Below, in pieces: positions 63,047 through 64,000 of a stretch of 64,000 nucleotides of DNA; positions within the stretch are counted from its first letter, which is position 1, and each line of letters begins with the position of its first letter. The DNA comes from a virus. Where the stretch lies: the IMG/VR virus record IMGVR_UViG_3300005529_000001, positions 80,882 through 144,881 of that record; one strand, written 5' to 3'. A program made the position numbers and the translations under genes. The notes below the pieces were generated by a model. That model saw nothing but the letters and a program-made list of their open reading frames with translations, was not told the DNA's origin and did not search any database.

Positions 63047-63907
63047 TCAGTGCTGAACAGATGGGACCCAGTGCGTGGTTCGACCGTCCTTGGTCTCTTC
63101 CTTGACGACAGGGTTTCCCATCGGGTCAGTCAGATTACCATACACCGCAAAACGCCTCTGCGCCCCGCCTTTGGAACCATCGGGATTTACATACGTCCTG
63201 ATCGTCGCTCCACCCGAGTTGTAGCTTGCTCCCATCACATTGATGATCTGCTGACGTAGCTGTTTCAGTTCGTTGGGTGTCAAGCTGTTAACGGTCCGAT
63301 GGGGTGAGAGCTCAGCTAGATACAGCGCCTCAGCTTTCACGTAGTTGCCGATGCCGCTAAGCACCGACTGGTCCATCAAGGCCTCAGCCAAAGTCTTCAT
63401 CGATCTCTTGAAGAGTTGCAGCTCAAACGTTTGCTGGTCGGGCGGGTGCTTCAGCATGTCGGGTCCCAGCGAAGCTAGCTTCTTTTTCATCAAGACATCG
63501 TCAGGATCATACACGAACTTGACTGTCCCAAAGTGGCGTGGGTCCCGAAAGCCCAGAGTCAACGGACCTTGCCCGTTGCCACTGTCAGCCCTTAGGATCA
63601 ACGCAGTGTGCTTGTCAGGCTTTTGGGTGGTCCACTGCCCTGACATCCCGTAAGTGCACCAGACCCACCAGCCGTCGCCAACTGACCAGTACATGAACTT
63701 GCCCTTGCACTCGACGGCATGGATGCGAAGACCGTTCTCTGGAATGCTGGAGTTTAGCTCAGCCAAACCCTCGGGATCCTTGTCAGCATAGCGGCCTCCC
63801 GTGCTGTCGCCGTGGTTTCGGTTGACGCTGATGGAGCGTAGATGTTTCCCTACCAGCAACTTCCCGAGGAAGTCAGCGCTGCGTCGTACTTCGGGTCCTT
63901 CCGGAAT
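63047..63907 (-). CDS. Fpg/Nei family DNA glycosylase (zincless-finger NEIL1/MvNei1-like); N-terminus PEGPEV with no ATG directly upstream
   Basis: H2TH block LMDQSVLSGIGNYVKAEALYLAELSPHR and LTLGFRDPRHFG. The C-terminal RRFAVYG...W region has no Cys4 finger. The frame continues upstream of the track TTG start to IPEGPEVRRSADFLGKLLVGK, the catalytic Pro2-Glu3 N-terminus of the family. The codon before CCG is ATT, and an in-frame stop lies 12 codons upstream. Confidence 0.55.
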   Translation of the reverse strand: MPEGPEVRRSADFLGKLLVGKHLRSISVNRNHGDSTGGRYADKDPEGLAELNSSIPENGLRIHAVECKGKFMYWSVGDGWWVWCTYGMSGQWTTQKPDKHTALILRADSGNGQGPLTLGFRDPRHFGTVKFVYDPDDVLMKKKLASLGPDMLKHPPDQQTFELQLFKRSMKTLAEALMDQSVLSGIGNYVKAEALYLAELSPHRTVNSLTPNELKQLRQQIINVMGASYNSGGATIRTYVNPDGSKGGAQRRFAVYGNLTDPMGNPVVKEETKDGRTTHWVPSVQH

Positions 63908-64000
63908 GACGTTACCCCATCCCTTCTCAGACTGCCGATCTTACATCGGGGTTGTCAAGTGTATGGAACGACGATACGCAATCGTGTTACAACAGCAAGA

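Follow-up and report, generated by a model that had tools for sequence, protein, structure and literature searches.

Where does translation begin when the codon in front of the catalytic N-terminus of an enzyme is ATT? This question is raised by a gene for a predicted DNA glycosylase of the Fpg/Nei family (nei), found on the minus strand at positions 63047-63907 of a 64,000-nucleotide stretch of viral DNA (positions 80,882 to 144,881 of IMG/VR record IMGVR_UViG_3300005529_000001). The whole stretch is called the window here. It lies in a 369.5-kb metagenomic contig (ENA ERZ27279688, k141_1055159) that is a giant phage and shows the marks of one: short end-overlapping genes, ribosome-binding sites of the GGAGG type, a Gp23-like capsid fragment, a lysozyme gene and many ORFans. 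Comparison with relatives makes it very likely that this is a functional phage nei gene starting at the near-cognate codon AUU, and that such a start is a recurrent design instead of an error or the mark of a dead gene.

The nei frame was re-read on the minus strand. It runs from TAA (63943-63941) through GAT CGG CAG TCT GAG AAG GGA TGG GGT AAC GTC to ATT (63907-63905) and continues with CCG GAA GGA CCC GAA GTA. The translation is *DRQSEKGWGNV-I-PEGPEVRRSADFLGKLL, in which PEGPEV directly follows ATT. The in-frame TAA, 12 codons 5' of ATT, closes the frame, and none of the 11 sense codons in between (DRQSEKGWGNV) is ATG, GTG or TTG. The stretch that opens with ATT comprises 286 uninterrupted sense codons and closes with the TGA stop (63049-63047). 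The open reading frame (ORF) list starts the gene at an internal TTG (Leu17, 63859-63857), which lies 16 codons 3' of ATT, has a poor Shine-Dalgarno (SD) sequence and is also used in the public gene call (P0001, 270 residues). A product begun at this TTG would be without the catalytic Pro and Glu, which are encoded by CCG GAA at 63904-63899. The public call is a truncated mis-annotation without the active site. Position 2 of the Pfam profile Fapy_DNA_glyco is aligned to residue 2, the Pro right after ATT, and therefore ATT stands at the initiator-Met position of the family. The coding sequence was re-annotated to run from the proposed near-cognate initiation codon ATT, where 65-70% of relatives have ATG, to TGA; its product is a predicted MvNei1-like zincless Fpg/Nei DNA glycosylase and apurinic/apyrimidinic (AP) lyase. 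A purine-rich SD tract, GAGAAGGGATGGGGT (63928-63914), places GGGGU 6-7 nt ahead of ATT, and a 9-nt element, GGTAACGTC (consensus GGTRRCRHY; 63916-63908), lies immediately 5' of the start codon. A preliminary description, made from the letters of the window alone, had reported ATT before CCG, the stop 12 codons upstream and an intact frame of 286 residues reaching 16 codons 5' of the TTG. All of this was borne out. The base in which the codon differs from ATG is 63905, and not 63906 as given there.

The protein is a zincless, MvNei1-like member of the Fpg/Nei (H2TH) superfamily. Pfam matches were obtained for Fapy_DNA_glyco in the N-terminal domain (6e-13; 49.9 bits, cut-off 25.5), for the DNA-binding H2TH domain at residues 147-238 (63469-63194; 5.9e-16; 58.7 bits, cut-off 34.7), with the GIGNY motif present, and for Fapy_DNA_glyco_C (27.6 bits, cut-off 27). 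In an alignment of 55 homologues P2, E3, P5 and E6 are invariant, and the window Nei has all 35 invariant family residues. Arg276 is also invariant and lies in RTTHW, which is aligned to RTTYW of MvNei1. No Cys occurs in the last 45 residues or in the zincless-finger beta-hairpin region (residues 252-285; 63154-63053). The AlphaFold (AF2) model from 55 homologues reached a predicted local distance difference test (pLDDT) score of 93.2 and a predicted template modelling (pTM) score of 0.90, and strands 268-271 and 277-280 form a C-terminal hairpin in it. Foldseek gave MvNei1 structures as the best match (template modelling (TM) score 0.82), followed by MutM/Fpg, Nei and NEIL3, all with probability 1.00 and TM scores of 0.72-0.82. 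The best sequence match in the PDB was again MvNei1 (3A45/3A46; full length, E=3.5e-33). Neither of the NCBIfam equivalog thresholds was reached, with 138.9 bits for fpg (TIGR00577, cut-off 203.3) and 74.3 bits for endonuclease VIII (NF007763, cut-off 252); the protein is not an equivalog of cellular fpg or nei. The glycosylase/AP-lyase function is predicted from these similarities. The sequence and fold matches agree with the earlier assignment to the NEIL1/mimivirus-Nei type and with its statement that the four-Cys finger is missing from the C-terminus.

MvNei1 and human NEIL1 are the described members of the family with a zincless finger (PMC7139703). MvNei1 (PDB 3A42, 3A45, 3A46, 3VK7, 3VK8, 4NRW) aligns over its full length, 1-285 to 1-286, with about 32% identity, and common to both proteins are an N-terminal (M)PEGPEV, the lysine of KGKF, the H2TH domain and a zincless beta-hairpin carrying RTT(H/Y)W. 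At this identity, however, the window Nei belongs to a distinct subfamily. MvNei1 comes from an amoebal giant virus and has a Met start in the deposited sequence, whereas the window gene has ATT, and the genome in which it lies is of the bacteriophage type, with operon genes that overlap and with SD sites. Human NEIL1 (PDB 1TDH, 5ITQ and others) is of the same superfamily, with a zincless finger and an N-terminal Pro nucleophile; its sequence resembles the window Nei only weakly and over the H2TH region alone (E about 5e-4), and its long C-terminal tail is absent from the phage protein. E. coli Nei (endonuclease VIII) and Fpg/MutM have the same fold as the window Nei, together with its catalytic Pro and Glu and its H2TH domain, but these cellular enzymes carry a four-Cys zinc finger.

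Fpg/Nei enzymes use a catalytic N-terminal amino group (PMC8307549). This chemistry fixes the start of the gene to one codon, and the start codon can therefore be read without guessing. A nucleotide search of the nei region against 50,697 GenBank phages gave no match, and the corresponding protein search gave only distant matches with identity of 30% or less; there is thus no annotated close relative. A protein database search returned at least 961 homologues, many of them on contigs of 320-370 kb. Among the best 120 of these, the residue before Pro is Met in 76, Ile in eight, Thr in four, Leu in three, and Val and Pro in one each. Every one of the non-Met residues lies inside an artificial N-terminal extension of the call, and 27 of the 120 are truncated calls beginning 3' of the active site. 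DNA was then taken for 164 relatives (IMG/VR and JGI metagenomes) and 13 database proteins, and the codon before the catalytic Pro was read directly. De-replication at 90% identity produced an unbiased set of 123 clusters (IMG/VR and JGI), in which this codon is ATG in 85, TTG in 18, GTG in eight, ATT in seven, and ACG, ATC, CTG, GTT and CCG in one each. A larger set of 133 clusters contains nine ATT, six ACG and two ATC. Eight truncated database calls were checked, and two have ATT, three ATC, two ACG and one ATG without SD. Exact-pattern scans of all IMG/VR added further unique verified nei genes with ATT (10), ATC (9) and ACG (1); the ATG loci from the corresponding scan are those among the matches listed and give no collection-wide denominator.

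Judged from these codons, roughly 10% of phage nei lineages appear to start at ATT, ATC, ACG or CTG. For the clade of the window the non-AUG share is perhaps near 30%, or one in three, as extrapolated from a sample in which Pro is preceded by Ile or Thr in 12 of the 120 homologues and the start is non-canonical in seven of the eight truncated calls that were checked. An approximate neighbour-joining tree with Fitch parsimony requires at least 18 switches between canonical and non-canonical starts, which indicates that the non-canonical state was repeatedly gained, lost and retained. ATT had been described as a very rare start codon; this is true in general and not of this gene family. The MvNei1-like subfamily is almost confined to viral sequence, and a search of 185,579 species genomes found only seven relatives, all with ATG or GTG, too few to serve as a cellular baseline.

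Within the soil giant-phage clade of the window, ATT is found in the window and in L167/L168, ATC in L166, L087, L177 and L178, ACG in L015, L169, L170/171, L172, L173 and L175, and ATG in L001/2, L007, L086 and L174. Most of the non-AUG genes of the clade have GGAGGG followed by GGTRRCRHY abutting the start codon, for example caGGAGGGTAGCGTC-ATT and ttGGAGGGTAGCGTT-ACG. The ATG genes have unrelated, SD-poor upstream sequence, which is not alignable to that of the window. The GGTRRCRHY element occurs at 9 of 26 unique non-canonical loci versus none of 128 canonical-start loci, and the window is among the positives. This indicates that the window gene is of the non-AUG type by descent and not of the ATG type.

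The strength of the ribosome-binding site follows the start codon. The predicted duplex with the anti-SD sequence has a mean energy of -6.6 kcal/mol for ATG genes, -9.4 for GTG/TTG genes and -8.2 for non-canonical genes (Mann-Whitney p=2e-5 and 0.014). Within the clade of the window the means are -5.8 kcal/mol for ATG and -8.4 for non-canonical starts (p=0.018). Across the IMG/VR-wide loci, ATT/ATC/ACG genes average -9.6 versus -2.5 kcal/mol for ATG genes among the matches listed (p=2e-8), a comparison confounded by SD-less giant viruses of eukaryotes in the ATG set. In the window itself the value is -8.0 kcal/mol at the ATT site versus -2.2 at the mis-called TTG site, and the ATT site ranks among the better SDs of 32 neighbouring genes, 27 of which start with ATG. 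The SD of relatives is GGAGG with a spacer of 7-8 nt. Weak start codons are thus paired with stronger SD sites.

The non-AUG genes also show the signs of working genes. At 15 of the 26 non-canonical loci, the window included, the stretch from the upstream stop to the Pro codon contains no ATG, GTG or TTG in frame; in L177 the in-frame stop lies only 4 codons upstream and overlaps the SD. With no alternative start, such genes either begin at the near-cognate codon or stay untranslated. Full-length frames are present at all non-canonical loci, and catalytic and DNA-binding motifs at nearly all. The ratio of nonsynonymous to synonymous substitution rates (dN/dS) is 0.12-0.22 for the window versus its relatives, 0.18 for the ACG/ACG pair L172-L173 (dS 1.4, 72% identity), 0.28 for an ATC/ATC pair and, between an ATT gene and a TTG gene that are 92% identical, 0.059. 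Such ratios show that non-AUG nei lineages are kept long-term under purifying selection.

Several observations weigh against a functional AUU start. The SD of the window (GGAUGGGG) is degraded relative to the GGAGGG of relatives. The two closest relatives with DNA (L001/L002, 81% amino-acid identity) have ATG and a different upstream sequence, so that a recent change to ATT in the window is conceivable in principle. A single metagenome assembly underlies the base call at 63905. A scan of the intergenic region upstream of the gene found no sigma-70-like promoter. Finally, two relatives carry a Pro codon that is not near-cognate before the catalytic Pro (CCA in L176, CCG in L050), and therefore not every odd case is explained by near-cognate initiation.

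The preliminary description had left three options: initiation at ATT, a substitution or error that changed ATG to ATT, or a pseudogene. The comparative data favour the first. The strongest competitor, itself very unlikely, is that a recent ATG-to-ATT substitution silenced nei in this phage and that the frame is intact only for lack of time. The ATG of L001/L002 and the weakened SD of the window fit this account. It is opposed by GGTAACGTC, as only lineages with non-AUG starts have this element, which never accompanies ATG; its sharing with the non-AUG loci argues against a private error and a recent knock-out alike. The account is also opposed by the retention of all 35 invariant residues, by the low dN/dS of the window gene and by the persistence of non-AUG lineages over dS>1.

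Slightly less probable still is that the gene has no ordinary SD-led start at ATT, for which three routes were considered. A non-catalytic product of 270 residues could be made from TTG, but the family's most conserved motif lies in the 16 codons 5' of TTG, and TTG is almost without SD. Reinitiation could follow translation of an out-of-frame mini-ORF, ATG GGG TAA (63920-63912), which is indeed present and ends 4 nt before ATT; its ATG, however, is without a correctly spaced SD, and the mini-ORF is probably incidental because relatives carry GGAGGG at that place, without ATG. A longer precursor could be cleaved, for instance by the adjacent trypsin-like protease, whose Trypsin_2 gene is a conserved divergent neighbour; this route is closed by the in-frame stop and the lack of a start codon just upstream, in the window and in 14 other loci, which make a precursor impossible. 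A sequencing or assembly error, with G (ATG) as the true base at 63905, is the least probable explanation of all: one metagenome contig stands behind the base call, but the same codon class is found in many independent assemblies and samples, including ATT in both L167 (ENA) and L168 (Logan, a different run), and the linked upstream motif predicts a non-AUG start.

Initiation at AUU in the window gene could proceed as follows. The purine-rich SD (GAGAAGGGAUGGGGU) would position the 30S subunit at AUU, which would be decoded by fMet-tRNAfMet. Deformylase and methionine aminopeptidase would then remove fMet, so that Pro becomes free at the N-terminus to act as nucleophile; Met can be removed because Pro is allowed in the penultimate position. 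The weak codon, offset by a decent SD, would keep translation of this DNA-nicking enzyme at a low rate, which may depend on initiation fidelity as set by initiation factor 3 (IF3). AUU decoding in vivo, Met removal, low dosage as a selected property and any role of IF3 are inferred. Since the N-terminus is fixed to one residue, the family cannot dodge a weak codon through a nearby start. The alternation between ATG preceded by a poor SD and a near-cognate codon preceded by a strong one suggests stabilising selection on a low initiation rate. It also suggests dosage control of the nicking enzyme; sensitivity to IF3 is speculation.

A type I methionyl aminopeptidase is encoded in the window at 36875-37741 (plus strand; TIGR00500, 276 bits, cut-off 171; Pfam Peptidase_M24, 5.6e-48). 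It may fit a need for efficient Met removal from Nei, although the link is circumstantial. It was the only one of the relevant factors seen, as the Pfam annotation of about 40 window proteins included no IF3, deformylase or formyltransferase. Scans of the window for tRNAs and Rfam families gave no matches, hence no phage tRNA there as an alternative initiator. Folding of the 5' region (63868-63975) revealed no notable RNA structure (z-score -0.19). When about 80 window ORFs were scanned for an SD together with a near-cognate codon 5' of the first canonical start, nei and one doubtful ACG case at 1829-2059 came up; near-cognate starts are therefore not a habit of this phage across its genome. 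A second mis-called start was considered in the neighbouring HhH-GPD gene, a short one, and rejected, as an in-frame stop lies 4 codons 5' of its ATG.

Natural starts outside the set AUG, GUG and UUG are held to be exceptional in bacteria and phages, and ACG is hardly documented as a natural prokaryotic start. A phage precedent for AUU is reportedly the internal start of T4 gene 26*, described by Nivinskas and colleagues in 1992. That codon is an internal secondary start, whereas the AUU of nei is the sole start and its N-terminus is set by chemistry. In E. coli, the AUU of infC is the sensor of IF3 autoregulation. infC and pcnB are the sole two confirmed non-canonical starts of that species, both AUU (bioRxiv 10.1101/063800). 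Initiation from AUU, AUC, AUA and CUG there reaches about 1-2% of the AUG level, ACG likewise gives rise to Met-initiated protein, and about 0.05% of the annotated starts in model genomes are non-canonical (10.1101/063800). infC and pcnB resemble the window nei in having a natural AUU start on a gene whose product must stay low, but they are unrelated genes, and the nei family varies among AUU, AUC, ACG and CUG, alternating with AUG between lineages. No previous account turned up in the searchable literature of Fpg/Nei genes with non-AUG starts, of bacterial or phage genes with a natural ACG start, or of jumbo phages with Fpg/Nei. Initiation at non-AUG codons was known already, and so were zincless Nei enzymes; the family-level start pattern appears to be new.

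For the single gene, the result is a well-supported case of a rare start together with the correction of a truncated public call. For the family, public calls of such nei genes are systematically truncated or extended, and nei offers a clean natural system for near-cognate initiation, ACG included, and for SD compensation. The pattern suggests that phages titrate a potentially self-damaging base excision repair enzyme at the level of translation. If the control is sensitive to IF3, it would be a new viral example of infC-like logic. A broader joint reading is put forward only tentatively and is, taken whole, unlikely. It holds that AUU, AUC or ACG with a conserved strong ribosome-binding site would be a selected regulatory device and not tolerated drift, in the soil giant-phage clade and sporadically across phage nei. 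Nei synthesis would be tied to the initiation fidelity of the infected cell, through the IF3-to-ribosome ratio or a phage factor that relaxes start discrimination, so that the enzyme would be made only under stress or at one particular stage. ACG would count as a genuine prokaryotic start maintained over long periods, and Nei would be a natural sentinel showing that non-canonical phage initiation is far commoner than annotated.

The divergent intergenic region next to nei, which is the first gene after it, measures about 150 nt, and the trypsin-like protease gene lies on the other strand. The order HhH-GPD, Trypsin_2 (opposite strand) and nei is kept in relatives. An apparent ORF that ends at the TAA 5' of nei is not a called gene, so that nei is not coupled to an upstream gene. 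A conserved sequence, ATCATR-N3-TATGGT / CATAGCTAT, is located in this intergenic region beside the SD of the protease gene, just outside the window (9820-9833 of L165, the contig of the window past the window end). This sequence, present at the same position in L167, L087, L172, L173, L001, L007 and L086, may serve the phage as a promoter; it was not picked up in the sigma-70 scan. Also in L165, a NUDIX (MutT-like) gene (3885-4448), a gene for a 143-residue HhH-GPD glycosylase (8218-8649) and nei (9953-10813) lie within 7 kb, a grouping that resembles a phage-borne set for the repair of oxidative damage (GO-like). The 430-nt gap before the HhH-GPD gene contains an uncalled ORF (7786-8218) with a predicted membrane helix and then a coiled-coil-like stretch (MVSLPFIIVGCVTLVIVIALLVG...). 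On the other side of nei, a 78-residue Cys/Pro-rich ORF (MSEPCKHCGHCPHCGQPYPSPY...; 62805-63041, minus strand) starts 6 nt past the nei stop and has no Pfam match; the public gene call has a 242-nt gap where it lies.

Further observations were made in the relatives. In L166 (1476-1487, ATC start), an in-frame GTG two codons upstream would give MPIPEGPEV, with an alternative N-terminal Pro two residues off register; GGAGGG abuts that GTG, and the spacing therefore favours ATC. In L174 (P0055), ATG precedes Pro with almost no SD (predicted +0.6 kcal/mol) and the public call skips to an internal start; truncated nei calls thus arise also from ATG starts without SD. L176 and L050 have an in-frame ATG 7-11 codons upstream, so that their products would carry N-terminal extensions such as MEKNEKPP-PEGPEV; these products may be inactive or processed, or the loci may hold sequence errors. 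Band_7 genes lie just downstream of nei in L166, L177 and L178, and a TnpB-like gene (OrfB_IS605 / Cas12f1-like_TNB) is found about 1 kb downstream of nei in L172 (3429-3888). Among the IMG/VR matches listed, many ATG-start PEGPE nei genes (L238-L310) belong to bins of giant viruses with eukaryotic hosts (GVMAG). Giant eukaryotic viruses and giant phages therefore have the MvNei1-like family in common, and cellular genomes nearly lack it.

Other parts of the window show the rich auxiliary gene content typical of giant phages. Genes for Cpn60/GroEL, an AAA ATPase, a TANGO2-family protein and an ADP-ribosylglycohydrolase are located on the minus strand at 53018-54667, 55467-57023, 57215-57988 and 58546-59499, respectively, and UDP-galactopyranose mutase and two glycosyltransferases are encoded at 47364-50005. 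A protein of 1050 residues with Major Vault Protein domains (MVP_shoulder 6.8e-29, Vault_3, Vault repeat) is encoded at 29403-32555 (plus strand) and is followed by a 638-residue SPFH/Band_7 protein (32638-34554, plus strand), an unusual pair for a phage. The first 8000 nucleotides of the window have a GC content of 64% versus 54-61% in the rest, with GC at third codon positions up to 0.87 in ORFs. This region includes one ORF with weak matches to P-loop NTPase (AAA/STAND-type) families and may be a module of different origin.

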